A DNA stretch of 54,866 bases from a virus (taxonomy: Duplodnaviria; Caudoviricetes). The DNA lies in the IMG/VR virus record IMGVR_UViG_3300013093_000004, positions 1 to 54,866 of that record; one strand, given 5' to 3'. The position numbers were made by a program, and so were the translations under genes. The notes beneath the pieces are model-generated. The model was not told where the DNA came from, did no database searches, and was given only the letters and a program-made list of their open reading frames with translations. How positions within the stretch are numbered: position 1 is the stretch's first letter; every line of letters begins with the position of its first letter. This document shows, piece after piece, positions 4,899 through 21,571 of this stretch.

Positions 4899-4929
4899 CC
4901 AAGCGCGGCCTCGCTGAAAAAATCGTTCA

Positions 4930-5070: not shown

Positions 5071-5115
5071 GCGTGATTTTGACGGCGGAGGAAAATTAAT
5101 CGGGGTCGAAATCGT

Positions 5116-5724
5116 ATGGCAAAACGCGGACGACCGGCCAAAGAGCCCAGCGAAGGCGACAGGGCAAAAGTCGCTGATTTACGGGCAAAAAAAGTACCCG
5201 TCGCTGATATAGCGGCGATCTTTCAGATGTCAGTTCCCACGCTGCGGAAATATTTTCGGGACGAATTTTTTACCGGAAAAAAAATCGCGGCGGAGAAAAA
5301 ACCAAGCCGCGAAGTCACCGAAGCCCTCCGGGCCAAGGTCACCCGGTATCTTGGTTATGGCATGGGCCCCGAAGACATCGCCCTGGCGATCGGGTACCAC
5401 GGCGAAGGCGAATACGAAAATTTCCGCGCCGACTATGCTCATGAATTGCGCATCGGCCGGGCGATCACCCGGGCTGAAACGATCGACCGCTTGGTCAACC
5501 AGAGTGCCGGCGGTCTGATCGGCGCCACCACCAAGCTGGAAGCGCTGAGCCGGCCAACGCCAACGAAGGAAGGGCCGGCGGCGCCAGCTGGGGAGTACAT
5601 CGGCAAAAAGACGGTCGCCAAAGCAGACGCGGCAACGGCCATTGCGGCGGGCGGAATGTTTGCCCCGCGCACCCCGCCTCGCCTTGCCGCCGTCAACGGT
5701 CAGCCGGTCACAAAGCCTGATTGA
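5116..5724 (+). CDS. terS: Terminase small subunit
   Basis: MAKRGRP start, HTH IAAIFQMSVPTLRKYF, C-terminal FAPRTPP; abuts terL. Confidence 0.8.
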   Translation: MAKRGRPAKEPSEGDRAKVADLRAKKVPVADIAAIFQMSVPTLRKYFRDEFFTGKKIAAEKKPSREVTEALRAKVTRYLGYGMGPEDIALAIGYHGEGEYENFRADYAHELRIGRAITRAETIDRLVNQSAGGLIGATTKLEALSRPTPTKEGPAAPAGEYIGKKTVAKADAATAIAAGGMFAPRTPPRLAAVNGQPVTKPD

Positions 5725-7505
5725 TGCTGGCCTGGTCGACTGCGTGCATCGATTGGCGCGAACGCATCATTGCCGGCAAGTCATTGTTGCCCTGCCCTCC
5801 TCTGTTCCCGGAGGAGGCAGAGGCGGCGCTGGCAGTGTTTCGCGATCTGCCGATCGTCGATGTCATGGGCAAACCCAGTTTTGGCGATATCGGGCGCCCT
5901 TGGACGTTTGATCTGCCTGCGGCTGTTTTCGGCGCTTACAACCCGGAGACGGGCCGGCGCGAGATCAACCAGTTCTTTGAGCTGATCGCCAAGAAGAACA
6001 CGAAATCGACCCGCGCTGCGGGGATCATGCTGACCGAGCTGATCCGCAACGATCGCTACAGCGCGCAATACACCATTCTGGCCCCCACGATCGAGGTCGC
6101 GAAGAATTCCGCTGAGCCGGCCATGGATTTTGTGGCCGAACACCCCGATTTGAAACGCATTTTGAAACCGGTCGCGCATCAGCGCTTGATCGAACACCGC
6201 GTGACAGGCGCACAATTGAAGATCCTGGCCGCCGACAGCGAAACTGTCGCCGGCGGCAAAACCACCGGATTGCTGATCGACGAACTTTGGCTGTTCGGCA
6301 AACGCCCCAATGCGAAGAACATGCTGCGCGAGGCGATGGGCGGTTTGGCGTCTCGACCTGAAGGGTTCGTGATCGCGCTGACGACTCAGGGGGATGCCCC
6401 GCCCGAAGGCGTGTTTCTGGATTGGTTGCGCCGGTTTCGCGACATTCGTGATGGCAAGTTGATCGCCCCGCGTTCGCTGGGCATGCTCTATGAATTCCCG
6501 GAAGATATGATCCGGTCGGAAGCCTATAAGGATCCGGCGAACTTCTATATCCCGAACCCCAATCTGGGCGCGTCTGTCGACGAACAGTTTTTGCTCGACG
6601 AATACGAAAAAGCCCAGCGCGAAGGCCAGAAATCGCTGGTCGGGTTTTTCGCCAAGCACTTGAACGTCGAACCAGGCATGGCAGCTCGGGCCGATACTTG
6701 GGCCGGCGCGGAATTCTGGAAACAGCGGGCAGATCCGGCAATCACGCTCGACGAAATCATTGCCCGGTGTGAAGTGGTGGTGATCGGCCTCGATGGCGGC
6801 GGCCTAGATGACCTTTACGGCATGACAGTGCTTGGCCGCGAAAGCGCCGAAGTCGAAGTGTCGGCCAAAGTGGCCGCCGACGAAAGCGAAGGCAGCATCG
6901 GCGGTAAACGTCAAATTAAACGGTGGCTGTCCTGGTCGCATGCATGGGCATCACGCATCGTGCTGGACCGCCGCAAATCGATCGCCGAAAAATTGCTCGA
7001 TTTGGAAAACGCTGGCGAGGTGACCATTCTGGAAAACGGCGAAGTCGACGAAAGTGGACAGCCCGCCGATATCGCCCAGATCATGGAAGTGATCATCCGC
7101 GTTCGCGATGCCGGACTGTTGTGCTGCGTCGCAGTTGACCCTGCCGGGCTTGGCGAGCTGATCGACGCTTTGGCTGATGCGCAGATCACCGAAGAAAACG
7201 CCAAAATTGGTCGCGATTATGTGATTGGCGCGCCTCAGGGCTATCGCATGATGACCGCGATGAAGACCGCCGAACGCAAACTTGCCAACGGCACCATGAT
7301 CCACGCTGATCAGCCCCTGATGGATTGGTGTGTGGCAAACTTGAAAATCGAGGCCACTGCCACCGCGATCCGCGCCACAAAGCAAACCGCTGGCGATGCA
7401 AAGATCGACCCAGCCATCGCGCTGTTCAACGCCGTGACGATCATGGCTGAAAACCCTGATGCGGTTGCCTCCGGTTACGAAACCAGGGGGCTGCTGATCA
7501 TCTGA
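5724..7505 (+). CDS. terL: Terminase large subunit
   Basis: Walker A-like IAKKNTKST, Walker B LLIDE, LTTQ motif III, nuclease GLDGGGLDD and KIDPAIA. Confidence 0.95.
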   Translation: MLAWSTACIDWRERIIAGKSLLPCPPLFPEEAEAALAVFRDLPIVDVMGKPSFGDIGRPWTFDLPAAVFGAYNPETGRREINQFFELIAKKNTKSTRAAGIMLTELIRNDRYSAQYTILAPTIEVAKNSAEPAMDFVAEHPDLKRILKPVAHQRLIEHRVTGAQLKILAADSETVAGGKTTGLLIDELWLFGKRPNAKNMLREAMGGLASRPEGFVIALTTQGDAPPEGVFLDWLRRFRDIRDGKLIAPRSLGMLYEFPEDMIRSEAYKDPANFYIPNPNLGASVDEQFLLDEYEKAQREGQKSLVGFFAKHLNVEPGMAARADTWAGAEFWKQRADPAITLDEIIARCEVVVIGLDGGGLDDLYGMTVLGRESAEVEVSAKVAADESEGSIGGKRQIKRWLSWSHAWASRIVLDRRKSIAEKLLDLENAGEVTILENGEVDESGQPADIAQIMEVIIRVRDAGLLCCVAVDPAGLGELIDALADAQITEENAKIGRDYVIGAPQGYRMMTAMKTAERKLANGTMIHADQPLMDWCVANLKIEATATAIRATKQTAGDAKIDPAIALFNAVTIMAENPDAVASGYETRGLLII

Positions 7506-7520
7506 ACACGGGACCACCGC

Positions 7521-7709
7521 ATGAACCGCTCGGCTCAAAATCTGCTGGCTGTCGTGCGGGATGCGATCGGCCTGGCTGGTCTGGGCGCCATCACGTTCGG
7601 CGCCTACCAGATCTACCATCCCGCCGGCTATATCGTCGGCGGCATGATCGCGGTCAGCGCGACCACGTTGCTGAATCTGGCCGCAATCAAGAAATCGGCC
7701 ATCAGCTGA
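7521..7709 (+). CDS. Small membrane protein between terminase and portal
   Basis: DAIGLAGLGAITFGAYQIYHPAGYIVGG; common at this position. Confidence 0.7.
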   Translation: MNRSAQNLLAVVRDAIGLAGLGAITFGAYQIYHPAGYIVGGMIAVSATTLLNLAAIKKSAIS

Positions 7710-9046
7710 TGGCAGGCGGTTTGTTTGGCGCCCTGGTGCGCGGCGCCCAGTTGGCAACGCGCGGGTTCCCCGGCGACACGGAATCATTCTGGAACGGCTA
7801 TTTCTGGTCGGCGCCGTCTGCGACCGGCATTCAGATCAATCAGCAGACCGCGCTGCAGGCGACCACCGTCATGGCCTGCGTGCGCATCCTGTCCGAAGAC
7901 GTTTCGAAAATGACGCCTCGGATGTACCGTCGCTATACCTCGGGCATCCATAAGAACGGCGCGCGCGAAAAACTGGACTCGGCCGACCATCCGCTTGCCA
8001 AGCTGCTGAAGCGGCCCAACGATTGGATGACCTGGCCGGAATTCTGCCGGATGATGATGATCGGCTACCTGCTGCGCGGGAACGCCTTTGCCGTCATTTT
8101 GCGCAATCGCCGCGGCGATCCGATTTCGCTGGTACCGATCAACCCCGATCGCGTGTCGCTGTGGCAGGCACCCGATGGCGGCCTGTTCTGGTGGGTTACC
8201 CGGTCGGGTCTGCATGAATTGAACGTGCTGGCACATGTGCCGCTGTTGATCCCTTACGAAGATGTGTTTCACCTGAAGGATCTGTCCGCCGATGGCCTGG
8301 TCGGCACCTCGCCGATCGCGCTGGCGCGTGAGGCAATCGGGCTCAGCCTGGCGCAAGAACAGCAATATGCTCGGCTGATGGGCAACGGCGCGCGGCCGTC
8401 CGGCGTGTTGTCCACGGAACAGCGTTTGACCGATACCAGTGCCGCCCGCATTCGCGCCGACTGGGAAGCGATGAATTCCGGCCTCGCCAACGCGGGACGC
8501 ACTGCGATTTTGGAACAGGGTCTGAAATGGACCCCGCTGACAATCACTTCGGTCGATCTGCAATTTCTGCAAATGCGACAATTTCAGGTTATCGAAATCT
8601 GCCGGATCTTTCGCGTGCCTCCGCACATGGTCGGCGACATGGCGCGCGGTTCGTTCAACAACATCGTGCAGCAAAGCCAGGAATACCGCAACCACACGCT
8701 GACCAGCCACACCGACATCTGGGAAAAGCGGTTCGCGTTCACGTTTGACCTGGTCGATGACATCGAAGAGGTCGATTTCGACGAAAGCGCTTTGCTCAAA
8801 GCCGACCTGACCGCCCGGTACAATGCCTATCGCGTCGGCGTGCTGACCGGGTGGGATACCCGCAACGAGGTCCGCGTCGCCGAAGGCAAGAACCCGCTTG
8901 ACGGGCTCGATGAACCAATGGCGCCGGCCAATGAAATCGACGGTTCAAAACTCGGCAGCGACATGGGCGGCGACAACCCCGGCGCCGGCCAGCCCAGCAC
9001 CAACATCGATGTGAACAACCAGCCCATCAATCAGGCAGATTCGTGA
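7709..9046 (+). CDS. HK97-family portal protein
   Basis: TVMACVRILSEDVSK, LLRGNAF, GTSPI, NGARPSGVL, EICRIFRVPPHMVG, NEVR. Confidence 0.96.
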   Translation: MAGGLFGALVRGAQLATRGFPGDTESFWNGYFWSAPSATGIQINQQTALQATTVMACVRILSEDVSKMTPRMYRRYTSGIHKNGAREKLDSADHPLAKLLKRPNDWMTWPEFCRMMMIGYLLRGNAFAVILRNRRGDPISLVPINPDRVSLWQAPDGGLFWWVTRSGLHELNVLAHVPLLIPYEDVFHLKDLSADGLVGTSPIALAREAIGLSLAQEQQYARLMGNGARPSGVLSTEQRLTDTSAARIRADWEAMNSGLANAGRTAILEQGLKWTPLTITSVDLQFLQMRQFQVIEICRIFRVPPHMVGDMARGSFNNIVQQSQEYRNHTLTSHTDIWEKRFAFTFDLVDDIEEVDFDESALLKADLTARYNAYRVGVLTGWDTRNEVRVAEGKNPLDGLDEPMAPANEIDGSKLGSDMGGDNPGAGQPSTNIDVNNQPINQADS

Positions 9047-10224
9047 TGAAACAGCGCCGTTCGGACAATCAGATGCTGCGCCGCTTCGTCAGCAGCGGTG
9101 TCACCGCGCTGTCGGATTATGAAATCGAGGTGATCGTCTGCACCAATGACGATCACGTTCTTGATGGCGATGTCTGGGACATGCAGGGCATCGATCTGAC
9201 CCGCTATCTGGCGCATCCGGTGGTGCTGTGGGATCACGACATGTCGCAGCCGATCGGTCGGGCGTCCGATCTGACCGTCACGCCGGAAAAGATCACCGCA
9301 AAGGTCACATTTCCCGACGAGGGAATTTCGCCCAAGGCCGACGAAATTCGCAAAATGGTCAAATCGGGCATGATCAGCGGCGTCAGCGGCGGCATCCTGC
9401 CCGTTCAATCCAGGCCGCTCGATCCCAAAAATCCGCGCTCCGGCAATCGCATCACCAAATCGATCCTGCTGGAATTCAGCATCTGCGCCGTCCCCGCCGA
9501 TGCATCATCGGGTGTGACTGCCCGATCCAATGGAGGCACCACCGTGGCTGACCCGACCGTCCCGACCGATGATGAAAAGGCCGCCGCTGCTGCCGCGCGC
9601 AAACGGGCTCTGGCAGTGCTGCCGCGCGGTTTGTATTCGGTCGGGCAGCTCGCCTATACTCTTTCGTCGCTTGGCTATCAGGCTGACAGCGCCAAGTATG
9701 AAGCGGAAATCGAAGGTGACGGCAGCAAGGTGCCGGCCATGTTGGCATCGGTTCTGCACGACCTGGGCGATGCGCTGATCGCGATGACGATCGAAGAGGT
9801 CGGCGAATTGCTCGCCGGGCACGACGTTGACGTCGAAGCCGATGATGACGATCTCGATCCCGACGAACGCGCCGCGATCGCCGGCACGGACAACGCCGCG
9901 CTGCGGGCATTCCGGCGCGGTGTGGCGCATGCCAAACAGCGCGTTGGCAAAAAGCTGTCGGCCGACACGGTTCGTTGCATCCGCAACGCGCTGGACGAAC
10001 ACGCCGCCGCCACCGCCGACGTTCGCGCGGCCGTTGCAAAACAGAAAAAGGCGCTCAGCTCGATCGAAGATTTGCTCGACGGTACCGATGACGGCACCGG
10101 CGACGGCAATCCCGAAGCGACCACCGGCAACGATGATGACGAAGACGCTGCCGCCGAACGCGCGTTGCGCGCCCGCGCCGCCCTCGCAAAGGCCCGCGCG
10201 CTCGAACTCACCGCGCCTGTCTGA
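9046..10224 (+). CDS. Prohead protease with C-terminal scaffold-like extension
   Basis: PVVLWDHD..PIGR, SGVSGG, LLEFSICAVPAD; acidic helical C-terminal half. Confidence 0.9.
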   Translation: MKQRRSDNQMLRRFVSSGVTALSDYEIEVIVCTNDDHVLDGDVWDMQGIDLTRYLAHPVVLWDHDMSQPIGRASDLTVTPEKITAKVTFPDEGISPKADEIRKMVKSGMISGVSGGILPVQSRPLDPKNPRSGNRITKSILLEFSICAVPADASSGVTARSNGGTTVADPTVPTDDEKAAAAAARKRALAVLPRGLYSVGQLAYTLSSLGYQADSAKYEAEIEGDGSKVPAMLASVLHDLGDALIAMTIEEVGELLAGHDVDVEADDDDLDPDERAAIAGTDNAALRAFRRGVAHAKQRVGKKLSADTVRCIRNALDEHAAATADVRAAVAKQKKALSSIEDLLDGTDDGTGDGNPEATTGNDDDEDAAAERALRARAALAKARALELTAPV

Positions 10225-10233
10225 CCCCTTCCT

Positions 10234-10329
10234 CTGACGCTCCCGCGTCAGTCGAACGCCCTTACCGCCGGTTGGGCACCGGCACTTGGCCCGTCGCGAG
10301 ACGGTCTTTTCCCTTTGATGGAGCCCCCC
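10234..10329 (+). ncRNA. Structured leader upstream of major capsid gene (copy 1 of repeated element)
   Basis: Three hairpins, ACGCCC linker and TTCCC..GATGGAGCCCC; same layout at 16036-16133. Confidence 0.55.
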
Positions 10330-11742
10330 ATGACCCGAACCCTTAAGGACGTTCGCAAGGAATATCGCGACGCCACCGATGAACTGCCGACCCTGACCCG
10401 CGACGCGGCGAAGTTTGCCGCGTGCGAAGCGCGCATCGCCGCGTTGGAAGAAGAACTGAACGTTTTCGAACGGGAAGCTCGTGCCACCGACATCCGCAAC
10501 CGCGCGCTGGCGGGTGTCGACACCTCGGCCGAGACCGACGGCGCGTCCGCCAACGGTGATTTCGTCGACAATTCGGCCGGCGCCTGGCGCTCGACGCAGG
10601 ATCTGGTCGCGCAGCGCAGCCGTGGACCGATTTCCCCGGCAGTGCGGTTTGCCGAACTGATGAGCCAAAGCCGGCGTTCGTGGGGCGTGCAACTCGACGC
10701 GCAGAAGCATTTTCGCAACCTGGGCGAACAGCTGCAGGCGATCGCGACGTACTATCTGCGCAAGGATGGCACCTGCGATGCCCGTCTGACCCGCGCGCCC
10801 ACCGGCGCGTCGGAAGTTGACCCAACCGGCGGCGGCTTTTTGCTGCAGACCGATTTTGCCAATGCGATCTGGATGCTTGCCCACGAAATGGGCGACATCC
10901 TGGGCGCGGTGAACGGTATTCCGATCTCGGGCAATTCGAACAGCCTGAAGATCCGCGGCGTGGACGAAACGAGCCGTGCTACCGGCAGCCGCTGGGGCGG
11001 TGTCGCGTCGAACTGGGTCGGTGAAGGCACGGCGGTCACCCCGTCGAAGCCGAAGTTCCGCCTGATCGAGTTCGATCTGAAAAAGCTGATGTCGGTGATG
11101 TACACCACCGAAGAGCTGATGCAGGACGCCCCGGCGCTGACCACGATCGCCGGCCAGGCATTCTCGGAAGAAATCATGTTCATGACCGAGGATGCCATCG
11201 TCAACGGCACCGGCGCGGGCATGCCGCTGGGCGTGCTGAACTCGCCGTCCCTTGTGACCGTGGCGAAGCAGCCCGGTCAGGCCAGCGGCACGATCGTCAA
11301 GGAAAACATCGACAACTTGTGGGCGCGCTGCTGGGCGCGCAGCCGCAAGAACGCGGTTTGGTACATCAATCAGGATTGCGAACCGCAGCTGAACCAGATG
11401 GGCCAGATCGTCGGCACCGGCGGTATGCCCGTCTATGTGCCGGCGGGCGGGCTGTCGGCCGCGCCGTTTGCCACGCTCTATGGCCGTCCGGTGGTCATCA
11501 CCGAATACAACGCTGCGCTGGGTACGCCGGGCGACATCCTGCTGGCTGACCTCAGCCAGTATACGAAGGTCGACAAAGGCGGCGTGCAGGCGGCCACCTC
11601 GATGCACGTGGCATTCCTGACCGATGAAAACGTGTTCCGCGTCACATATCGCGTCGATGGCAAGCCGATGTGGACCACCGCCATCACGCCGTACAAGGGC
11701 ACGCTGACCAAATCGCCGTTCCTGGCGCTCGCGCAGCGCTGA
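10330..11742 (+). CDS. Major capsid protein (HK97 fold)
   Basis: GGFLLQTDF, WVGEG, KKLMSVMYTTEELMQD, NGTGAGMPLGVL, TLYGRPV. Confidence 0.96.
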   Translation: MTRTLKDVRKEYRDATDELPTLTRDAAKFAACEARIAALEEELNVFEREARATDIRNRALAGVDTSAETDGASANGDFVDNSAGAWRSTQDLVAQRSRGPISPAVRFAELMSQSRRSWGVQLDAQKHFRNLGEQLQAIATYYLRKDGTCDARLTRAPTGASEVDPTGGGFLLQTDFANAIWMLAHEMGDILGAVNGIPISGNSNSLKIRGVDETSRATGSRWGGVASNWVGEGTAVTPSKPKFRLIEFDLKKLMSVMYTTEELMQDAPALTTIAGQAFSEEIMFMTEDAIVNGTGAGMPLGVLNSPSLVTVAKQPGQASGTIVKENIDNLWARCWARSRKNAVWYINQDCEPQLNQMGQIVGTGGMPVYVPAGGLSAAPFATLYGRPVVITEYNAALGTPGDILLADLSQYTKVDKGGVQAATSMHVAFLTDENVFRVTYRVDGKPMWTTAITPYKGTLTKSPFLALAQR

Positions 11743-11846
11743 TCGGGCCTACCACCCAACGATAACGGGCGCGGTTCCCCACCGCGCCCGCACATATCCT
11801 TGCCGCTTTGGGGGGCGGCACGCGCGTTCTGCGCAAGGAGCCCATC

Positions 11847-12335
11847 ATGGCACGCAATTTTTCGATGGTTTACCAGATCCCGCCGGTTGCACTGCTTGCT
11901 CCGGCCGCCGACGCCGCCGGCCGCGCCAGTCCGTACCGCACGTTGAAAAACGCGGCGGACAAAGCCTACATCGTTTGCCACATCAACCAAGGCAACGCGG
12001 CGCAGGTCACCCTGACCCCCTATCAGGCCAAGGATGTGTCCGGCACCGGGGCAAAGGCAATCAATGCCGTGCCGATCTTTTTGAACGATGCCACCGCGAC
12101 CAGCGATGCGTTCGTTCAGCAAACGTCGGCGGCCAATTTCCAGACCGACGCTACCATCGCTGACAAAATCGTAATTTTCGAAATCACTCCCGATGTGGCG
12201 CTCGATTTGGTCAATGGCTATCGCACCATTGGTGTGACCACCAGCGCCTCGAACGCGGCCAACATCACCGAGGCCACCCTGTTCGTCCTGGGCGCGATTC
12301 AGGGGGCCTCAGCCCCGACCACTTACAGCAACTGA
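11847..12335 (+). CDS. Putative capsid decoration/cement protein
   Basis: AGGAG RBS; beta-rich; directly after capsid gene. Confidence 0.55.
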   Translation: MARNFSMVYQIPPVALLAPAADAAGRASPYRTLKNAADKAYIVCHINQGNAAQVTLTPYQAKDVSGTGAKAINAVPIFLNDATATSDAFVQQTSAANFQTDATIADKIVIFEITPDVALDLVNGYRTIGVTTSASNAANITEATLFVLGAIQGASAPTTYSN

Positions 12336-12427
12336 CGAATTACCCCGGCGTGGCCGCCTTATGGCCGCGCCGGCCTTCGTTGTTTCCCTTTCGCGCGGCG
12401 TGATCGCATTGCGCAGGAGATTCGGTC

Positions 12428-13180
12428 ATGACCACCAAGGGCATCTACAAATATGGATTTGCCGTCGAATATGACGATGGCACGCAGGAATTTTTGGCGA
12501 CCTCCGCGCCGATCGATTTCAACGACGATTTCGTCGGCGCCGGCCACACTGCCAGCTTGCCGCAATTCGGCAGCCCGGTCGCGGGCTATCCCTGGGTTCA
12601 GAAAGTGGTCAAAACGGCGGGCACGCCGTCGGTCGCGGCGGTAACCAATGGCCCGGGTGGCCAGATCGCCATGGCGCTGACCAACACCAGCGAAGCGCAG
12701 GAAGCCACGCTTTACCAGAACGATCAGCGCACTTGGGACAGCACCAAGACGTTGATCTATCAGGCTCGCACCCAATTGACCGTGCTGCCCAGCGCCGCCG
12801 GTGTGCAGGCGGTGTTTGGCCTGGCCGGGGCGTGGGCCAGTGGCCCGCTGAATATCGGCACCTACATTTTCTTCGGCTGCAACGGTTCGGGCGAACTGTT
12901 CATGTACAGCTATGACGGCACCACGACCAAGGCGGTCGATACCGGCATCGCGCTGACTGCGGGCGTGTATTACCAGTTCCGCATCGAAATCGATCAATCG
13001 GGCGTGTTGCACTTCTATGTCAATGGGGTGGAATATACCACTTCGTTGGCACCGATCACTTGGGCTGCCACCGGCACCCCGGCGATCTTGCAGCTGTACA
13101 ATTCGGTCTACAAGCCCAGCGGCACTGGCGTAGCCACGCTCAACCTCGACAGCGTCGAGGTGTGGTCGCCGCGCACGTAA
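12428..13180 (+). CDS. Virion protein, ConA/lectin-like beta-sandwich
   Basis: FNDDF...DTGIALTAGVYYQFRIEI...HFYVNG. Confidence 0.55.
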   Translation: MTTKGIYKYGFAVEYDDGTQEFLATSAPIDFNDDFVGAGHTASLPQFGSPVAGYPWVQKVVKTAGTPSVAAVTNGPGGQIAMALTNTSEAQEATLYQNDQRTWDSTKTLIYQARTQLTVLPSAAGVQAVFGLAGAWASGPLNIGTYIFFGCNGSGELFMYSYDGTTTKAVDTGIALTAGVYYQFRIEIDQSGVLHFYVNGVEYTTSLAPITWAATGTPAILQLYNSVYKPSGTGVATLNLDSVEVWSPRT

Positions 13181-13206
13181 TCGCGCGCGCTCGATACCTG
13201 GCACCA

Positions 13207-13240
13207 TTCGTCATCCCGGGTTTGATCTCGGGATGACGAA
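13207..13240. repeat. 12-bp perfect inverted repeat, REP-like
   Basis: TTCGTCATCCCG-N10-CGGGATGACGAA. Confidence 0.7.
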
Positions 13241-13254
13241 ACAGGGAAAAAGTC

Positions 13255-13599
13255 ATGGCCTATATCGAATTTCAGACTGCGACGATCGCGGCCAGCGCGT
13301 CGCTGTCTTCCGAAGTGCCGTTGGGCGAAAAATCACTTGTCGGGATCGTCATGCCCCCCGCATGGACCGCCGCATCGTTGACTTTTCAAGCGACGCCCGA
13401 CGATACCAATTTCTATGAACTCTATGACGGTGCCGGCAACGAAGTGACGGTGGTCGCTGGTGCTGGACAATTCGTTCAAGTTGATCCCACCAAATGGCGC
13501 GGAATTACCGGGATCAAAATCCGCAGTGGTACCGCTGCCGGCCCGGTCAATCAGACCAGCGCCGTGACGCTCACGCTTGTCACTCGCACGATCTACTGA
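13255..13599 (+). CDS. Hypothetical virion protein
   Basis: GIVMPPAWTAASLTFQ; in head operon. Confidence 0.6.
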   Translation: MAYIEFQTATIAASASLSSEVPLGEKSLVGIVMPPAWTAASLTFQATPDDTNFYELYDGAGNEVTVVAGAGQFVQVDPTKWRGITGIKIRSGTAAGPVNQTSAVTLTLVTRTIY

Positions 13600-13602
13600 C
13601 CC

Positions 13603-14520
13603 ATGGGCATCGCGGCTGGCCGGATCAGCACTGTTACCGCTTCATCGGCCAGCTACGCGCTGGTCGATCTGGCAACAGCGAAAAACGAATTGAACATCCG
13701 CGCGAATGACACGACCAACGACACCGCGCTGACCCGAACGATCAATTTCGTCAGTCAGATCATCGCCAACTATTGCGGCGGCCCGTTTGGCCCTTTCGCG
13801 GTCGAAGCGGTGACCGATACGTTCCAGTTTGATCGTGATGCGTTCCCGGGGATTCGCTTTGCCGGCGAAAACCGCATTGCATTGGCCCGCTGCCCGTTGC
13901 TGTCGATCGGCGCTGTGGTGCAGACCAACACCGACGGATCGACCACGACGCTGGTCCAGGGCACCGATTACCTGCTCAATGCCAAACAGGGCGAACTGAT
14001 GCGGCTCAGCTGCACCGGCGCGCTGATGCGGTGGGAAACGCTGCCGCTGTCGGTGTCCTATGTGGCCGGCTATGGCGCGCTGATCACCGCAGAGGCGCAA
14101 ACCGTGCCCGGATCCGCCCCGTATACCGTCAACGCCACCAATGCGGCCACTTTCGCATTTGATCAGGGCGTTACCTATGCCAACGGCACTCCGCTGACCC
14201 TTGTCGCTGCCAACCCTGCCCATGGTCAGTACAGTGTGGCCAACGGTGTTTACACTTTCGCCGCCGCCGATGCGCACGCCGCCGTGCTGCTGGCCTATGC
14301 CTATAACCAGATTCCCTATGATCTGGTCAGCCATGCGCTGGAAATCGTCACTGCGCGCTGGGCCAGTCGCGGTCGCGACCCCGCGCTGGTGCAGGTGGAT
14401 ACTCCCGGCATCGGCACGCAGCGGTTCTGGTTCGGCAGCGAGCCTGGACAGGATGGCGAACTGCCGCCGCGCATCGCCGCAGCGCTGGACAACACCTATC
14501 GACCTCCACGGGTGGCGTGA
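13603..14520 (+). CDS. Head-tail connector (gp6-like) with inserted beta domain
   Basis: LVDLATAKNELNI...IANYCG...VSYVAGY...IPYDL. Confidence 0.75.
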   Translation: MGIAAGRISTVTASSASYALVDLATAKNELNIRANDTTNDTALTRTINFVSQIIANYCGGPFGPFAVEAVTDTFQFDRDAFPGIRFAGENRIALARCPLLSIGAVVQTNTDGSTTTLVQGTDYLLNAKQGELMRLSCTGALMRWETLPLSVSYVAGYGALITAEAQTVPGSAPYTVNATNAATFAFDQGVTYANGTPLTLVAANPAHGQYSVANGVYTFAAADAHAAVLLAYAYNQIPYDLVSHALEIVTARWASRGRDPALVQVDTPGIGTQRFWFGSEPGQDGELPPRIAAALDNTYRPPRVA

Positions 14521-15020
14521 TGGACATTCGCTTTGACATCAAGAACGCGCGACAGGTCGGGCTGCGCTTTGACCAGTTTCCGCCCGAAATTTACGACGAT
14601 CTGCGCATCGCCATCAACGATCTGGCCCATCAGCTGTTTGCCTTGGTCCAATCCGAAACGCCTGATCTGACCGGACAACTGCGCGGCCAGGAAATGGTCC
14701 GCGTGTTCACCGATCCCAAAAAGATCACCGGGTCGGTCGCCGTGGTGACGCGTGACAAGCAATCGGCGATCAAAGCGGCGACGCTGGAATATGGCAGCAC
14801 CGGCAAATCGGTGAAGGTCAAAAGCAAAACCATGCGGCTGGACCACGTTTTTGACCACGTCTTGGACGAGCCGATGGAGGTTATCGTCAAGGCCTATAAT
14901 CGCACACCGAACGTCGAAGAATTCCGCTTTGAACGCGGCCCGCTGGAAGTGATGCAGCCGATCGTTGCCGCGCGGCTGAATGCGGTGGTTGCCGCCGCGG
15001 TCAAGGCCGCGAACGCATGA
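14520..15020 (+). CDS. Neck/tail completion protein (HK97 gp10-like)
   Basis: TPDLTGQLR, LEYG motifs; position. Confidence 0.6.
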   Translation: MDIRFDIKNARQVGLRFDQFPPEIYDDLRIAINDLAHQLFALVQSETPDLTGQLRGQEMVRVFTDPKKITGSVAVVTRDKQSAIKAATLEYGSTGKSVKVKSKTMRLDHVFDHVLDEPMEVIVKAYNRTPNVEEFRFERGPLEVMQPIVAARLNAVVAAAVKAANA

Positions 15021-15691
15021 ACGCCGATTTCTACATGATCAAAACCGCGCTGCTCAATCAATTGACCGGCGCGGTCATGCCGACCTTTACCGCCGGGGCA
15101 ACGGCCAACAGTGCCACGCTTACCGCGCCCAGTTCGATCGCCGGCCTGTTTACCGGGCTGCCGGTGTTCGGCATCGGCGCGGCGGCTGGCGTCACCATCG
15201 CGGCAATCGCCGCCAATGGATCATCGATCACGCTGTCGCAGCCGATGACCACGGACACCGTTGGGACGACCACCGCATTCGGCGCCGGATTTGTGCAAAC
15301 CGGCGCGCGCGCGGTGCGGTGGAACGATGTTGCCGATCAACCCGCGCTGTTCTTGCGCCGCGTCGCCGTACACGACGATGAAGAAGGCGACGGCCTGGTG
15401 CGCACCGCGCTTGATTTTGAAGCGTGGATCTACAGCAACGCCGGCGCCGATGGCGATGTCGATCCCGATGTCACGCTGTCCGCGCTTGAACAATTGGTGC
15501 GCAACGCGATCAACCCCGATCTGCTGCCCCATGACAATGACGAAGGCCGGTTCACCCTCGCCACCGCGCTGGCAGCGCTGGGCCTGCCGCCTGCCTATTG
15601 GTGCCGGGTCACCGGGCATTCGATGATTTTCACCGGTGATCAGGGGCCGCAGGCCATCGCCCGCATCCCGATCCGCGTCACGCTCCCCTGA
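15017..15691 (+). CDS. Putative tail terminator with inserted domain
   Basis: WNDVADQPALFL...FEAWIY...ARIPIRVT; position before tail tube. Confidence 0.55.
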   Translation: MNADFYMIKTALLNQLTGAVMPTFTAGATANSATLTAPSSIAGLFTGLPVFGIGAAAGVTIAAIAANGSSITLSQPMTTDTVGTTTAFGAGFVQTGARAVRWNDVADQPALFLRRVAVHDDEEGDGLVRTALDFEAWIYSNAGADGDVDPDVTLSALEQLVRNAINPDLLPHDNDEGRFTLATALAALGLPPAYWCRVTGHSMIFTGDQGPQAIARIPIRVTLP

Positions 15692-15710
15692 TCCTGAAAG
15701 GACCGCTGCA

Positions 15711-16016
15711 ATGTCCACCAACGCCGACATCGTCAATGGCTGGTTCGCCGACCGGCTGGCCAATGGCCCGATCGCACGCAATACCGAAGCATACAATCAG
15801 GCTCAAGCCGCGCTGACCGATCTGATCGCCCGGCTGGATGCTGCCGCCGCGCCCGCGCCGGCCGACGCTGCAGCCACGCCCGCCACGCCGTCCAAGCCGA
15901 CCGCAGCGCAAAAGGCAGCGGCCAAGATCGCCGCCGACGCTGCCGTGTTGTCGGCCGATGAAGCGGCTGTGGCTCAAGATACCGCGTCGGCCTCGACTGG
16001 CTCGACTGCCGCGTAA
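15711..16016 (+). CDS. Ala-rich hypothetical protein
   Basis: AAGGA RBS before ATG 15711. Confidence 0.6.
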   Translation: MSTNADIVNGWFADRLANGPIARNTEAYNQAQAALTDLIARLDAAAAPAPADAAATPATPSKPTAAQKAAAKIAADAAVLSADEAAVAQDTASASTGSTAA

Positions 16017-16035
16017 CCAGCGCGGTTTTGGAATA

Positions 16036-16133
16036 CCCCGACGGTGTTGTCGGGGCACGCCCCTAACGGCCCTTGGGCAAGGCTGCTGACCCCGCTGTGA
16101 AGCGCACGTCCTTCCCATCGATGGAGCCCCCAC
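16036..16133 (+). ncRNA. Structured leader upstream of major tail gene (copy 2 of repeated element)
   Basis: Same hairpin order and motifs as 10234-10329. Confidence 0.55.
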
Positions 16134-16895
16134 ATGACCGTCCTGAATGGCAAACCGACTTTCGGCGTTGGCCGCGCCTTCGCCATCCCGAATGTCACCA
16201 ATCCGACCCCAACCCGCCTGCTGATCCCGCAGAGCCAGTCGATCGACATCAAATCCAAGGTGGAAGAACTGTTCGGCGAAAACATCTTTGCCGAAGCGAC
16301 CGCCAAGGGTGAAACGTCGATCACCGGCAAAGTCGAATACGGCAAATCGGTGGCCAGCGTGCTGGCCAACATCATCAGCGGCGATGGCTCGACCACCGGC
16401 AGCTATGCCGAAGCGGACAAAGAAGCTGGCACCGTTCCGGCCAGCACGCCCTACACTTATACCGCCGTCAATGCCGCCACGTTTCTGTTTGACCTGGGCG
16501 TGCGCAATGTCACGACCGGCGCGATCTATTCGTGCGTGGCCAGCGGCAGCGAGGTCGCGGGCAAAAGCTATTCGGTCGCGGCCGGCGTCTACAAATTTGC
16601 CGCGCTCGATGCCAATGCCAACGTGCAGGTATCCTACGCCTATTCGGTCACTGCATCGGGCGTGACGGTCAATCTGGCCAACCAGGTGCAGGGCCCGTCG
16701 ACCAGCTTTGAAGCGGTGCACGTGTTCCCGTGGGGTACCGAACAGGACATGGTGGTGCTCAACAACTGCATCGCGTCCAGCAGCAGCCTGCTGTCGGCCA
16801 AAAAGAGCGGCTTCGGCATGTCGACGCTCGATTACACCGCTGCGGTGAACGCCAGCGGCACGCTGGGCACCATCACGTTCGCCGAACAGAACTGA
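16134..16895 (+). CDS. Major tail tube protein
   Basis: PTFGVG...SIDIKSKVEELFGENIFA...KGETSITGK; precedes chaperones and tape measure. Confidence 0.8.
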   Translation: MTVLNGKPTFGVGRAFAIPNVTNPTPTRLLIPQSQSIDIKSKVEELFGENIFAEATAKGETSITGKVEYGKSVASVLANIISGDGSTTGSYAEADKEAGTVPASTPYTYTAVNAATFLFDLGVRNVTTGAIYSCVASGSEVAGKSYSVAAGVYKFAALDANANVQVSYAYSVTASGVTVNLANQVQGPSTSFEAVHVFPWGTEQDMVVLNNCIASSSSLLSAKKSGFGMSTLDYTAAVNASGTLGTITFAEQN

Positions 16896-16913
16896 TCAGG
16901 GGCCTGATCCGGC

Positions 16914-17285
16914 ATGATCGCCCGCACCATCGACGAACGCCGCGCGCTGGGTCGCGCGCGGCGGCTGGTGTTTCAGAACATCGCCAACGGTGTGCCGATC
17001 GAACGCATCCGCGAAGACATGCGCCTGTCCGATATCGAAATCGAACAGGCGCGTGGCTTTGTCGCGCGCAAGATCTTGGAAAACCGCACCCTGCGCCGGC
17101 AACCGCCAATTCCCTGTCTGACGCAGGCGGAAATCCGGTTTCACCGCCGCGCACTGTTGGGCACGCTGTCGCTGATCGGTGATGTCGACCTGTCCACCGA
17201 CTTGATCCTTTCAAAGCTGCTGGTCCAATCGATCGATCATCCCAGCATGCTGGAAGAAGCAAAACAACGGATGGACGCTGCATGA
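16914..17285 (+). CDS. Hypothetical protein
   Basis: ORF in tail operon; stop overlaps next start. Confidence 0.6.
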   Translation: MIARTIDERRALGRARRLVFQNIANGVPIERIREDMRLSDIEIEQARGFVARKILENRTLRRQPPIPCLTQAEIRFHRRALLGTLSLIGDVDLSTDLILSKLLVQSIDHPSMLEEAKQRMDAA

Positions 17286-17695
17286 TCACCCATCGCGATA
17301 TCACTCTGGGATTTGAAACCTTTCGTGTTCCGCCGCTGCCCATCCGGTGGAATCGAGAGGTCTATCCGCTGTGCGCTCGCCTTAGCGAATCCGATCTCGA
17401 AACGCGTTGGCTGGTGCACCAAGGCAAACTGCGGTTTGACGATCAGGAATTCGCTGATCTGTGCGATATCGCCTGGTACCTGACCCGCGCTGCCGGTGCC
17501 GAATTCGATCGAGCCACGTTCGATGCCTGGCCGATCAATTCGGTGCAACTGATGTTGGCGTTTTATGCGGCGCGCTATCAGACCGGGGTGTGGATTCCAG
17601 TCGAGGCCCCGGATGGCGCAGGCAAAGAGCCGGACCAACAGCCGGGGGAATCGATCGGGGAGCCGGAACCCCGAAAAAAACGCCGCCGCAAATAG
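17282..17695 (+). CDS. Tail assembly chaperone (G-like)
   Basis: Upstream of tape measure; slippery A7 at 17674-17680. Confidence 0.7.
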   Translation: MITHRDITLGFETFRVPPLPIRWNREVYPLCARLSESDLETRWLVHQGKLRFDDQEFADLCDIAWYLTRAAGAEFDRATFDAWPINSVQLMLAFYAARYQTGVWIPVEAPDGAGKEPDQQPGESIGEPEPRKKRRRK

Positions 17696-17949
17696 ATTTC
17701 AATCGGATTTTGGCGAAGCTGGTGCGCTATTTTCACCAGCCTGCCGAATACTGGCTCGATCACTGCACCATGCAGGATTGGCGCGACATCTATGCCCGCG
17801 AATTGATGGAATTACCCCCGATCGACCACTGGGGGGCCGTCTGGTTCAAACACGAGCCGCCAAATGAACCTTCGCCTGCTGCGTCCGCGTCGGCCGCCGG
17901 GCTCGAAGCTGAAGAATGGCGTTCCGATCTGCCGGACGTGACGGAGTAA
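17674..17949 (+). CDS. -1 frameshift extension of tail chaperone (GT-like)
   Basis: The -1 frame is open from A-AAA-AAA to TAA at 17949, 6 nt before the tape measure start. Confidence 0.7.
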   Translation, partial: KKTPPQIDFNRILAKLVRYFHQPAEYWLDHCTMQDWRDIYARELMELPPIDHWGAVWFKHEPPNEPSPAASASAAGLEAEEWRSDLPDVTE

Positions 17950-17955
17950 ACGGCT

Positions 17956-20907
17956 ATGGCCAACAACATTGCCGTTCAGATCACCGCTGACGTCGCCGAT
18001 CTGACCGCAAAATCGGCGATCGCGCGCGCCGATATGGCCGCCACGACCAAGGCGCTGAACGACCTGGCCAAGCAAGCGCGCGGCACGGCCATGACAACCG
18101 AATTGCAAACCTCATTGTTGCAAGCCGGCGATGCGGCGGCCAAAGCCAAAAACCAATACGCGGCGATCACCCAAGAATTGACAAAAATGCGGCCCGCTGC
18201 CGAAGGCGCTATGCACGGATCTGCCGGCGTAACGCGCGAGCTGCTGGTGATGGGTCGCGAACTGTCGCGCGGCAATTTCAACCGCATGGCTGGCAGTGCC
18301 ACAATTCTGGCGGGTCGGCTGGGCGTCCTGACCCCTGCGGTCATCATGACGGTCGGCGCCATCGCCGCCTTGGCTGCGCCGTTCGTTGCGTTTGCTGTCG
18401 CCGCTGAACAAGGCAGCCAGGAAGCGGCCAAATTCAAAAACGCGATCGAGGCGACCAACGGCTATGCCGGGGTAACCGAATCGCAATTGCAGAACCTGTC
18501 GCGCAGCATGGCGACCTGGGCGCATGTCGGTATCGGCGCGGCCAATGAAGCGTTGATGAAGATCGTCGCATCGGGTCATTTTTCCGGCGACACCATGCGG
18601 CTGGTCGGCGAAGACGCGGTACGCATGGGCCAACTGACCGGCCAATCTGCTGACAAATTCATCGACGAGTTCGACAAAATGAAATCCGGCGTGGCCAAGT
18701 TCGCGCAGGAATACAACGATCAGTACCATCAGCTATCGCTGGCCCAGTTTGAATATATCCGCACACTGGAAGAACAAGGCCGCAAAGAAGAGGCCGAATA
18801 CGCGCTTGCCCAGAACGTTTACAATTACCTCGGCAAGCAGGCGCCGCAAAACCTCGGGTATCTGGAATCGGCGTGGCATTCTTTGTCGAAAGCGGCTTCC
18901 GACGCGTGGGATTCGATGAAGGCATGGGGGCGCAACAGCAACCAGGATCAAATCGATGATTTGAACCAGCGGATTGCGCTGATGAAGCGCGACCCGAACG
19001 CCAACAAGGGTGGTGCGGTTTCGCGGGAAATTGCCGGGTTGGAACGCCAGCTGCAGTTGGTCCAACAGCGCGAAGCGAGCGAACAGCGCGCAGCCGCCTC
19101 GCGCGCCGAACAAGCCCGCACGCAAAGCGATGGTGTCGATGCCGCAGCCAGGTTGGCTGAAAAGTTCGAAGCATCCAAGACCAGCGGCGAAAAGCTGAAA
19201 AAGGCGATCGCTGATATCAACAACGATCTGGCCAAAGCGGTCAAGGCCGATCCCGCCAATGCTGCGCGGTATGAAGCAGAGGCTGCCGCGGCGCGTGCGC
19301 AAGCGCAAAAATCCGATACCCCGCATGCGCCCAAAGTTCATGACGATATCGTCGCGCAATGGACCGAACAGCTTCACGCGCAGGAAATCGCCAGCAAAGA
19401 CTTTTTCAAGGACAACACCGCCGACGAACTGGCGTTCTGGCAATCAAAGCTGGCGCTGGTCGCCAAGGGGTCCAAGGATTGGTTGGCAGTCCAGACCAAG
19501 ATTTATGAACTCAGCAAAACGATGGCGCATCAGGCTTATGACGCCAAGATCGCCGATTACAATGAACAAATCGCCGCCGCTCGCGACAATTGGTCGAAAG
19601 AGCAAGCCGATATTCAGGCCAAGCTTTCCTATGTCAAATCGACTCAGGGCGAACAAAGCCGCGCCTACAAAGACGCCCACCGCGAACTGGAAACCGCCCA
19701 GCGCGAGCACGACGATCGCGAATTGCGCGAAGCGCAGGAACACACCAAGCGGCTGTACGATGACCTGAAAATCCGCATCGATGCTCAGGCCAAGGCGCGC
19801 GAAGACGATGCCCGCGCGGCTGAGGCGGTGGTCAAGGGCAATGCCGGCGCGACCCCGTTCGGCGAAATCGCTGCGCAGCGCCAACTGGCTGAAATCCATC
19901 GCCAGTTGACCGAACAGAAGATTGCCGACAACGAAACGCTCTACGCTTCGCAATCGGCGGGGCTGCAAGCCGATATCGACAAGGCTGCCGCGCTCTATAA
20001 CGGCGACCAAAGCAAATATCAGGCGCTGCTCGATGCCAAGGCCAAGGCGGACCAGCAATACGCCGCGCGCAAACAGGAACTCGATGCCCAATTGCGCATG
20101 CAGTCCATTCAGGACATGCAGGCCCTGCAAAACACCTATGCCAGCTATATCAGCGGGACGGTCAATGCCACGGTTACCGGGTTCAGCAAGATGATCGGCG
20201 GCCAGGAATCGTGGCGCAACCTTGGCATAAGCATCTATCAGTCAATGGTCCGCGAGGCGGAACAGCAGATTGAAAAGCTGGTCACCAACTGGATTGTTCA
20301 GCACGTTTTCATGACCGCCGAACAGCGCGCCGAACTGGCCGCGCAGAAGGCTGCACACGCGGCAAGCGAGGCGGCCAAGACGGCGACAACCACCACCAGC
20401 ACTGCCGCGCAAACATCGGCAGTAGTGGCCGGCGGAGCGACGCAGACTGCTGCGATGATGGCAACGACCAAGGCACAAGTCGCGTTGCTGGCCGGCCTCG
20501 CTGGCGCCGGCGGCGTTGCTTCAATGGCAGCGGCACCCTGGCCGATCGATATGACTGCGCCCGCGTTCGGCGCTTCGATGGCGGCATCCGCGATGTCGTT
20601 CGGTGCGTTCGAAAAAGGGCTCGACATCGTGCCCAACGACATGATCGCGCAAGTCCACGAGGGCGAGCGCATCATTCCAAAGGCCGATAACTCCGCTCTG
20701 ATCAATCTGGCCGCGCGCGGCGCCGGGATGGCTGGTGGCGCCGGCTCGGCCGGCGGCGCGGCTGGCGGCGACACCCATAACCACTTCGCGCCAGTCATTC
20801 ATGCCAATGGCGTCGATCCCAAATCGGTGATGCAGGCGCTGGAAAGCAACTTTGGTGATTTCACCAGTCTGCTGAAGCGAGCAGCGCGCAACGGTGCTTT
20901 CCGCTGA
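17956..20907 (+). CDS. Tape measure protein
   Basis: 983 aa Ala/Gln-rich helical protein; NIAVQITAD start; C-terminal FEKG..VPNDMIAQVHEGERIIP. Confidence 0.93.
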   Translation: MANNIAVQITADVADLTAKSAIARADMAATTKALNDLAKQARGTAMTTELQTSLLQAGDAAAKAKNQYAAITQELTKMRPAAEGAMHGSAGVTRELLVMGRELSRGNFNRMAGSATILAGRLGVLTPAVIMTVGAIAALAAPFVAFAVAAEQGSQEAAKFKNAIEATNGYAGVTESQLQNLSRSMATWAHVGIGAANEALMKIVASGHFSGDTMRLVGEDAVRMGQLTGQSADKFIDEFDKMKSGVAKFAQEYNDQYHQLSLAQFEYIRTLEEQGRKEEAEYALAQNVYNYLGKQAPQNLGYLESAWHSLSKAASDAWDSMKAWGRNSNQDQIDDLNQRIALMKRDPNANKGGAVSREIAGLERQLQLVQQREASEQRAAASRAEQARTQSDGVDAAARLAEKFEASKTSGEKLKKAIADINNDLAKAVKADPANAARYEAEAAAARAQAQKSDTPHAPKVHDDIVAQWTEQLHAQEIASKDFFKDNTADELAFWQSKLALVAKGSKDWLAVQTKIYELSKTMAHQAYDAKIADYNEQIAAARDNWSKEQADIQAKLSYVKSTQGEQSRAYKDAHRELETAQREHDDRELREAQEHTKRLYDDLKIRIDAQAKAREDDARAAEAVVKGNAGATPFGEIAAQRQLAEIHRQLTEQKIADNETLYASQSAGLQADIDKAAALYNGDQSKYQALLDAKAKADQQYAARKQELDAQLRMQSIQDMQALQNTYASYISGTVNATVTGFSKMIGGQESWRNLGISIYQSMVREAEQQIEKLVTNWIVQHVFMTAEQRAELAAQKAAHAASEAAKTATTTTSTAAQTSAVVAGGATQTAAMMATTKAQVALLAGLAGAGGVASMAAAPWPIDMTAPAFGASMAASAMSFGAFEKGLDIVPNDMIAQVHEGERIIPKADNSALINLAARGAGMAGGAGSAGGAAGGDTHNHFAPVIHANGVDPKSVMQALESNFGDFTSLLKRAARNGAFR

Positions 20908-20908
20908 C

Positions 20909-21571
20909 ATGACGCTCCCCATCTATCCCGGCAGCGATCTGTTGAAAGGGCTGTCTTACAGCTCGAAATGGGATTCGCAGTTCTTCAATCAGAACGCCAC
21001 CGCTGCTGACGGCGCGTCGGTCAGCGTTGGCATCGCCAAGTACCCGCTGCATACGTTCGAATTGACCTACAAATTCCTGCGCGACGGGCCGGATTGGCAG
21101 GATGTGCTGTCGGCGCTGGAATTCCGCACCATGAAGGGGTTTCACCTCGCCATGGCCGGTTCGCTGAACCGGTTTCTCTATCGCAACCCCGACGATTCGC
21201 AGGTCTGGCAGCAATCAATCGGCACCGGCGACGGATCTACCACCACGTTTACTCTGGTGCGCACGTTCGGCGCCAATGGCTTTTTCGGCACCGAACCGGT
21301 CGGCCAGGTCGATACCACGTCAATCAATGTCTATCTGGGCGGATCGTCCACGCCGATCAACCCGACGCTCTATACCATCAGCACCGCCAACCCGGTGGCA
21401 AACACGATCACGTTCGCCACTGCGCCGGCGGCTGGCACCGCGATCGCGGTCGACATGGCCTATTGGTATTATTGCAGATTACCGAACGATAACGGCGTGT
21501 TTGAAAAGTTCATGGGCCGGCTGTGGCAGATCGGCAAGGTGCAGATCGCCAGTTGCCGCCCTGGTACGTGA
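20909..21571 (+). CDS. Distal tail protein (DUF2460-like)
   Basis: FLYRNPDD, IGTGDGSTTTFTL, ITFATAPAAG. Confidence 0.8.
   Translation: MTLPIYPGSDLLKGLSYSSKWDSQFFNQNATAADGASVSVGIAKYPLHTFELTYKFLRDGPDWQDVLSALEFRTMKGFHLAMAGSLNRFLYRNPDDSQVWQQSIGTGDGSTTTFTLVRTFGANGFFGTEPVGQVDTTSINVYLGGSSTPINPTLYTISTANPVANTITFATAPAAGTAIAVDMAYWYYCRLPNDNGVFEKFMGRLWQIGKVQIASCRPGT

Follow-up and report, generated by a model that had tools for sequence, protein, structure and literature searches.

The window analysed here is the whole of the IMG/VR virus record IMGVR_UViG_3300013093_000004 (Duplodnaviria; Caudoviricetes), a complete record of 54,866 bp with direct terminal repeats and about 62% G+C, in which no tRNA genes were found. 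Within its same-strand structural operon, two intergenic gaps of 105 and 117 nt are filled by two copies of a structured leader. Copy 1 (10234-10332) serves the gene for the major capsid protein (10330-11742, + strand), which is of the HK97 type and 470 aa long (Pfam PF05065, E 1.7e-42; PHROG phrog_10). Copy 2 (16036-16136), the subject of this report, serves the gene for a 253-aa protein (16134-16895, + strand) that was assigned with moderate confidence as the tail tube protein from phrog_8234 and Foldseek matches. The sequence at 16036-16136 proves to be a true second copy of a folded leader RNA, whose family has over 200 members in other phages.

All parts of both copies lie on the + strand. 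Copy 2 opens with hairpin P1 (16036-16055), a 7-bp stem CCCCGAC/GTCGGGG with the 6-nt loop GGTGTT, whose sequence is variable across the family. This is followed by ACGCCC (16057-16062), which contains the CGCCC block (16058-16062) and, within it, GCCC (16059-16062), the proposed 5' strand of a pseudoknot. Hairpin P2 (16068-16084) was placed from the model alignment and comprises the pairs G68-U84, G69-C83, C70-G82 and C71-G81; GGCCCTTGGGCAAGGC occupies 16068-16083, the loop UUGGGCA 16073-16079 and the GGGC in that loop 16075-16078. Hairpin P3 (16089-16109), likewise placed from the model alignment, consists of an inner stem CGCU/AGCG with a GUGA tetraloop (16093-16104; loop 16097-16100) and the outer pairs A89-U109 and C90-G108, set off by an internal loop. 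An unpaired pyrimidine tract and an extended Shine-Dalgarno (SD) block, UUCCC-AUC-GAUGGAGCC, complete the leader at 16112-16131 and form near-invariant columns in the family alignment. In DNA letters this stretch is TTCCCATCGATGGAGCCCCC (16112-16131), of which UCCC-N3-GAUGGAGCC takes up 16113-16129; GGAG (16123-16126) ends 7 nt before the ATG at 16134.

Copy 1 keeps the same order of elements with other stem sequences. Its P1 (10234-10251; CUGACGC-UCCC-GCGUCAG) begins 10 nt past the stop codon of the protease/scaffold gene and is followed by the CGCCC block (10257-10261), P2 (10267-10283; GCCGG/CCGGC with the loop UUGGGCA), P3 (10288-10307; GCGA tetraloop, from the model alignment) and the pyrimidine tract with GAUGGAGCC (10308-10329; GGAG at 10320-10323). 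A preliminary description, prepared from the sequence, had listed the elements of copy 2 and named 10234-10332 as their counterpart. On direct reading of the sequence every listed element was found where it had been placed, and the counterpart was recovered with its parts in the same order.

Pairwise alignment of the two copies gave 63 identical columns of 122. A 23-nt degenerate pattern running from ACGCCC to TTGGGCA matched these two sites only in the window; shuffled sequences averaged 0.01 matches, and 0 of 100 reached two. The 12-mer GATGGAGCCCCC, with up to 2 mismatches allowed, showed no count enrichment (2 found, 8.06 expected).

A pair of short composite patterns retrieved 91 and 104 IMG/VR stretches, and covariance model R1 was built from 73 distinct sequences. 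When both strands of the window were searched, R1 recovered exactly two copies, at 73.1 bits (16055-16142) and 71.5 bits (10254-10338), the next best match scoring 8.8 bits. The second model, R2, drew on 117 sequences, all from other contigs and none from the window. This model scored 66.0 bits for 16055-16142 and 70.5 bits for 10254-10338, with a next best match of 9.3 bits. In three sets of fetched phage loci, R1 gave 34, 97 and 103 matches at E <=0.001 (234 beyond the window), and the family therefore totals 236 matches including the two in the window, with 189 distinct sequences. These sequences are related, so that the shuffle statistics overstate independence; the model E-values are rough.

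Known RNA families and cultured phages were searched for relatives. The comparison with Rfam 15, which took in ribozymes, riboswitches, ROSE thermometers and phage motifs, returned no match at gathering score in the whole window and none at E up to 10 in 15950-16200; in 10150-10400, two chance-level matches only were returned at E up to 10, both outside the element. Searches of cultured phages by blastn with 15900-17000 and 10000-11000 gave no match, and a family member used as blastn query gave chance matches of 18-24 nt only.

The consensus runs, 5' to 3', from the variable P1 through CGCCC, a 3-5 nt A-rich linker, P2, a short linker, P3 and the tract to the start codon. P2 is a stem of 4-6 bp with the loop YUGGGCA, often closed by a C-A mismatch. 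P3 has eight stacked positions with one mismatch and carries a GNRA cap or, in 64 of 131 cases, a five-base GNRAN loop. The unpaired tract, (A/U)UYCCC-NNW-GAUGGAGCC-Y, stands ahead of the start codon and holds the SD sequence. Three unpaired blocks are near invariant: the YUGGGCA loop, UCCC and GAUGGAGCC.

Covariation was scored at 13 P2/P3 pairs in 130 distinct sequences. Here 81.5% of cells were paired (58.9% in shuffles) and 344 cells were changed on both sides (115 in shuffles). The covariation score was 0.454, compared with 0.141 in shuffles, of which 0 of 500 scored as high, and it was at most 0.061 when the partners were slid by 1-3 columns. Individual pairs were found in several forms, such as GC 51, CG 46 and AU 12 at pair 18-97, UA 62 and CG 59 at pair 116-162, and CG 71 and GC 43 at pair 111-169. 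In well-defined pairs 29 cells were G-U and 13 were A-C, an excess that favours sense-strand RNA. The preliminary description had held that the stems differ between copies with pairing and loop motifs kept, and had attributed this to selection on structure and not to recent duplication; the two-sided changes in P2 and P3 bear out the former across the family, and its covariation supports the latter. P1 is the weakest element: of 101 distinct contexts, 76 had a hairpin at its position (5 pairs or more, with its end 0-4 nt ahead of the block); the corresponding rates were 51% in shuffles and 60% in coding 40-mers. Masking of the SD block by pairing of the P3 5' strand with GAUGGAGCC, which appears in the minimum free energy fold of copy 1, was rejected, as the commoner P3 type does not retain the bases needed for this pairing.

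The GCCC of the upstream block is complementary to the GGGC in the P2 loop, and the CGCCC block probably pairs with this loop as a pseudoknot. Members with a non-G first loop base were fetched without constraint on the upstream block, and loci in which the pattern had fixed that block were excluded from the tabulation. With G at the loop position, the upstream base following GCC was C in 31 of 33. With loop A it was U in 13, A in 12 and C in 1; with loop C it was G in 4, U in 8, A in 2 and C in 2; with loop U it was U in 6 and A in 2. Upstream C was thus near-universal with loop G and otherwise present in 3 of 50, and upstream G was seen solely opposite loop C. Watson-Crick cells numbered 50 of 83 (chi-square p ~2e-14, uncorrected for relatedness). 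The many U-C and U-U cells weigh against a strict fourth pair, and the tabulation fits a 3-bp core, in which GCC pairs with GGC, and a fourth pair retained often though not always. The downstream UCCC, or the GCCC following the SD block, was also considered as partner of the P2 loop and was rejected: both stay constant when the first G of the loop changes, and the upstream block changes with it.

The seven-base P2 loop reads Y-U-N-G-G-C-A family-wide on a stem of about 5 bp, and its third base alone varies. Its triplet is always NGG and lies opposite an upstream CCN. The arrangement is similar to that of a proline anticodon loop opposite its codon, perhaps by coincidence; where tRNAs have a purine just after the triplet, the loop has C.

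The genes behind the family were surveyed from 175 distinct downstream open reading frames (ORFs) of at least 60 codons, which formed 39 clusters. One representative of each cluster was scanned and its label was carried to the cluster. A major head protein was encoded by 88 of the 175 ORFs, distributed over nine families (phrog_10, 264, 1328, 1005, 283, 1357, 29, 212 and 6671). A tail tube or major tail protein was encoded by 50 ORFs, 13 of them in the window's own cluster and resting on the fold result described below. The others were labelled as possible scaffold protein (6 of 175), cement protein (5 of 175), tail fibre or spike (2 of 175), tail chaperone (1 of 175) and single-stranded DNA-binding protein (1 of 175), and 22 of 175 had no annotation. 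The spacing from GGAG to the start codon was 6-10 nt in 164 of 175. A same-strand upstream frame ended at most 260 nt away in 130 of 175, with a median distance of 16 nt from stop codon to leader. The leader lay on the strand of the ORF in 175 of 175, a figure that is partly by construction as the model includes the SD block and ATG.

Three complete phage records contained 2 (the window), 2 and 3 copies. Three leader copies within 4-6 kb were observed in a 43,849-bp complete record (37666-43350; locus L072, genome G152) and also at loci L030, L033 and L191. The three-copy phages have one full copy, and the rest are reduced copies without P2; these stand before different structural genes.

Bacterial records were searched with a strict pattern in one genome each of 185,579 species, which gave 12 places. 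The pattern captures part of the family, and the counts are consequently lower bounds. Nine of the 12 places scored 62-76.5 bits with R1, and all 9 were from Alphaproteobacteria: records of Novosphingobium, Nitrospirillum, Reyranella, Rhizosaccharibacter, Hansschlegelia and Marinicaulis, together with metagenome-assembled genomes (MAGs) of Rhodospirillaceae, Acetobacteraceae and Alphaproteobacteria. A Comamonas place was weak (21.9 bits) and two others did not match the model. A tenth strong match came from a MAG labelled just Proteobacteria. Of the ten strong bacterial records, 7 have a major head protein gene downstream, 2 a major tail protein gene and 1 a gene for an unknown protein, and use of the leader before host genes was not seen in these ten. 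The first loose pattern gave mostly chance matches in bacterial genomes (1 of the 80 loci listed was above 50 bits). R1 run on 151 genomes belonging to the same class as a Sphingomonadales MAG gave 8 weak matches of 21-30 bits; just 29 candidates per genome were scored, and the result is therefore little informative.

Lake-water metatranscriptomes were searched for the region of the two leaders. All 24 of the runs listed, which come from 24 studies, contained some of 9800-17200, and 12 contained at least half of the sampled words; the phage or close relatives of it are common in lake water. Contigs of four runs over 4500-21500 fell mainly at ~9.6-13.8 kb and 15.98-17.4 kb; coverage of the terminase, portal and tape-measure genes was sparse. 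This material consists of contigs, which carry no levels, strands or RNA ends; the libraries may include DNA, and the coverage supports no conclusion.

Gene labels in the window are PHROG and Pfam profile matches. Those ahead of the capsid gene are the large terminase (5721-7505), the portal (7709-9046) and the S78 protease/scaffold (9043-10224), and head-tail genes lie between the capsid and tube genes. The tape measure (17956-20907, 983 aa) was assigned by size and position only. For the 253-aa protein encoded at 16134-16895, the sole profile match was the unnamed phrog_8234. An AlphaFold model made from 14 relatives was moderate (predicted local distance difference test, pLDDT, 67.4; predicted template modelling score, pTM, 0.50), and its 13 best Foldseek matches in the PDB were siphophage tail tube or major tail proteins (best E 4.1e-8, template modelling score ~0.43). 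The tail tube gene that had been proposed at this position agrees with these top matches, at a pLDDT of 67.4.

Several neighbouring genes of the operon were also noted. The 305-aa protein encoded at 13603-14520 matches a head-tail adaptor family over residues 9-167 and phrog_8234 over residues 163-237, which suggests a tube-like domain fused to an adaptor. The 250-aa protein encoded at 12428-13180, amid head genes, contains a Laminin_G_3/concanavalin-like lectin domain (Pfam, E 4.5e-7) and may be a capsid decoration or carbohydrate-binding protein. ORFs 16914-17285 and 17282-17695 are short, overlap and lie between the tube and tape-measure genes, the usual site of a tail assembly chaperone pair; 16914-17285 had no match in PHROG or Pfam. 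A 10-bp G+C-rich hairpin (11766-11790) lies 3' of the capsid stop codon with no U run behind it, and a 12-bp terminator-like hairpin with a T-rich tail (12345-12373) lies 3' of ORF 11808-12335. Together with the leader, these two hairpins could form a bracket around a stable capsid message segment.

On balance we consider it somewhat probable that the leader is a cis-acting element between cistrons, setting the translation of abundant virion proteins or the stability of their mRNA. Enhancement, as the direction of this effect, is suggested by the anatomy of the locus only. Under this proposal the leader would be embedded in the late polycistronic message, with an upstream cistron on one side and, on the other, the start codon of a highly abundant virion protein. 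Its compact fold would keep the ribosome-binding site of this single cistron accessible within a message whose G+C content is about 62%. The fold would insulate that ribosome-binding site, the pyrimidine tract and extended SD block would form a landing site, and the fold may also provide a protected 5' end. The downstream cistron would then be translated, or would survive, better than its neighbours, giving the high stoichiometry of capsid and tube. The reader would be a factor common to Alphaproteobacteria, for example the ribosome, an RNA-binding protein or an RNase. A trans-acting alphaproteobacterial reader is probable because the unpaired bases are near invariant and the leader is restricted to that host class despite the unrelated protein families behind it.

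A number of observations weigh against this proposal or against the data on which it stands. The approximately 25 near-invariant unpaired bases and the pseudoknot are not obviously needed by a plain enhancer. Many weaker copies are without P2 (36 of 175) and keep P3, the tract and the SD block; these P2-less copies have lower scores and occur more often ahead of cement and other second-rank genes. P2 and the pseudoknot must accordingly be dispensable for at least some function. Most members were gathered by patterns requiring CGCCC, TGGGCA and/or GATGGAGCC, and part of the block invariance is by construction because these patterns fixed the conserved blocks. Linkage to the gene families is incomplete. 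Among 7 relatives of the tube protein (1 genome locus and 6 viral loci) the leader was present in 1, the closest (L002, 77% identity), and again with different stem sequences. Among 71 loci fetched solely for encoding a relative of the capsid protein, down to ~40% identity, 31 carry the leader directly before that gene. A search of cultured phages with the capsid protein found 4 phages, and the one of these with an alphaproteobacterial host, a Bradyrhizobium phage, has a related capsid gene and no leader, its sole match being spurious (13.2 bits). The metatranscriptome contigs are unable to rank genes. In single-sequence folding, the stability of copy 2 did not exceed that of its shuffles (z +0.79; 161 of 200 shuffles at least as stable), and copy 1 was only mildly more stable than its own (z -2.04; 5 of 200 shuffles at least as stable). 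Given these values, single-sequence thermodynamics is unable to settle the structure, which the comparative evidence does show; an energy test of that kind would not have revealed it.

The invariant unpaired bases and the pseudoknot are more typical of a ligand- or protein-binding RNA or of a ribozyme. More speculatively, the leader may represent a new class of compact pseudoknotted functional RNA, repeatedly acquired by unrelated phages for expressing their most abundant virion proteins within a polycistronic message, that would serve either as a self-cleaving or factor-guided processing module or as an internal ribosome entry site (IRES)-like recruiter of the alphaproteobacterial ribosome or of a clade-specific RNA-binding protein; we regard this as a tentative, rather unlikely possibility. 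A translational operator is comparably doubtful. In that case a late phage protein or a host protein would bind the loops and the tract by the SD block and would time or limit capsid and tube synthesis by repression or feedback, consistent with the near-invariant YUGGGCA loop, UCCC and GAUGGAGCC and with a conserved block longer than pairing with 16S rRNA requires. Similar operator logic applies to the T4 gene 32 and RegA sites and to autoregulation of the P22 scaffold. Feedback by the gene's own product is, however, made unlikely by the unrelated proteins encoded behind the same element, and no candidate binding protein turned up. Processing by a new class of self-cleaving ribozyme, or at a defined RNase site, would leave a protected 5' end on capsid and tube messages and would suit both the intercistronic location and a compact RNA of ~75 nt with a pseudoknot and many invariant unpaired bases. 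Contig starts that coincide at 10236/10239 (two runs) and at 15990/15991 (two runs) are a weak hint at most in its favour: they lie upstream of the conserved core, the contig 10070-10496 crosses the first site, and contigs cannot show RNA ends. With no Rfam ribozyme family matching at E up to 10 either, processing is considered improbable.

The remaining explanations are each less probable again. Small pseudoknotted aptamers sited immediately ahead of an SD block typically have such an architecture, and sequence inspection indicates a possible 3-bp UCC/GGA pairing that could mask this block, so that a metabolite, ion or temperature might gate the ribosome-binding site. Such a riboswitch or RNA thermometer is nevertheless judged quite improbable: the consensus has no conserved alternative pairing or terminator and leaves the SD block unpaired, ROSE and the other Rfam thermometer and riboswitch families gave no match, and a link between a metabolite and virion proteins has no obvious rationale. 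A nut- or put-like RNA would render RNA polymerase termination-resistant along the long structural operon; the strong hairpins behind the capsid gene at ~11766-11790 and 12345-12373 are in line with this. In most copies P3 is a short GNRA-capped stem (five-base GNRAN in 64 of 131) that may resemble lambda boxB, and the CGCCCUUA-like block may faintly resemble boxA. The block is nonetheless CGCCC and not the boxA consensus, fixed spacing to an SD block and start codon is not expected of such sites, and no N-like protein turned up, without a search aimed at one; antitermination is thus very unlikely. Least probable by our estimate, and scarcely credible, is a site acting at the DNA level, such as a late promoter or protein-binding operator with incidental hairpins. 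Short conserved blocks at fixed spacing could bind a protein, an idea that Pope et al. put forward for the Cluster K mycobacteriophage ESAS repeats in the available text of that report (PMC3203893). Compensatory changes that preserve pairing between the blocks and the bias of G-U over A-C on the sense strand argue otherwise, and no sigma-70-like promoter was found at either leader. The string TTGGGCA...TTGG was also viewed as a sigma-54 promoter and rejected by eye, since the spacing and the -12 element were not kept in a third leader example.

Tailed phages make hundreds of capsid and tube subunits, and only a dozen portal subunits, off a single late transcript, and this difference has mostly been explained case by case. 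Here one RNA module marks high-copy genes across at least 9 capsid families and several tail tube families, apparently solely in phages of Alphaproteobacteria. The leader offers a testable handle on differential expression inside phage operons and a pointer to a host-group-specific reading factor. It may also be used as a sequence tag for the major capsid and tail genes of uncultured alphaproteobacterial phages, and it is a candidate high-expression part for genetic tools in Alphaproteobacteria.

Structured intercistronic elements that give the cistrons of one message different stability or translatability, and so set stoichiometry, include the stabilising hairpins of the Rhodobacter puf operon and the RNase III sites of T7. 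The lambda nut site (boxA plus boxB) may resemble the leader in having a short conserved single-stranded block followed by a small GNRA-like hairpin with a 4-5-base loop, and in being present in two copies per phage. It differs in that the leader has an additional P2 and pseudoknot and another block sequence, and in that the leader is fixed immediately before the start codon in a late structural operon, whereas nut is located downstream of an early promoter independently of start codons. Unlike riboswitches of the preQ1-I and SAM-II type, the leader has SD columns that are unpaired in the consensus, and its probable pseudoknot joins CGCCC to the P2 loop. In plastids, an intercistronic expression element provides a structured element between the cistrons of one operon (available text of PMC2230500). 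As far as that text describes the plastid element, neither it nor the puf and T7 elements resemble the leader in sequence or structure, and conserved loops and a pseudoknot are absent from them.

The SAS of Cluster K mycobacteriophages, as described in the available text of PMC3203893, is GGGATAGGAGCCC, a 13-bp sequence located 3-7 bp before the starts of non-structural genes in 11-19 copies per genome. Like the leader, SAS/ESAS contains a repeated asymmetric block in which an SD core is followed by GCC(C), the block of the leader being CCC-N3-GATGGAGCC. Both stand a few bases before start codons (the GGAG of the leader ends 6-10 nt before), are conserved beyond rRNA pairing, precede genes of different families and have a suggested role in translation initiation. 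By contrast, SAS/ESAS belongs to actinobacterial phages, its upstream inverted repeats do not covary and its authors favour DNA binding; the leader has 2-3 copies in each genome, which precede major head and tail genes of alphaproteobacterial phages, and its RNA stems covary. On the description given in that text, the leader shares with SAS/ESAS only GGAGCC(C) and position: the upstream half differs, and the 2 copies in the window precede structural genes.

A 2023 survey of IMG/VR reported 10,006 structured-RNA candidates, five of them typically upstream of the major capsid family PHA00201 (available text of PMC10690425). The survey is comparable to the present work as a large-scale comparative prediction of phage 5'-leader RNAs and differs in that its main text gives no sequence or structure for the capsid candidates; PHA00201 is not among the families scored here. 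The leader motif may be present, unnamed, among these 10,006 candidates. A capsid leader is not mentioned in the main texts of PMC5737381, PMC2864571 and the preprint 10.64898/2026.09.22.753630, and searches of the full-text literature by theme and by 9-letter motif strings found no description of the leader. Set beside these systems, the leader is regarded here as a new family of RNA among the cis-acting leaders, a kind already known.

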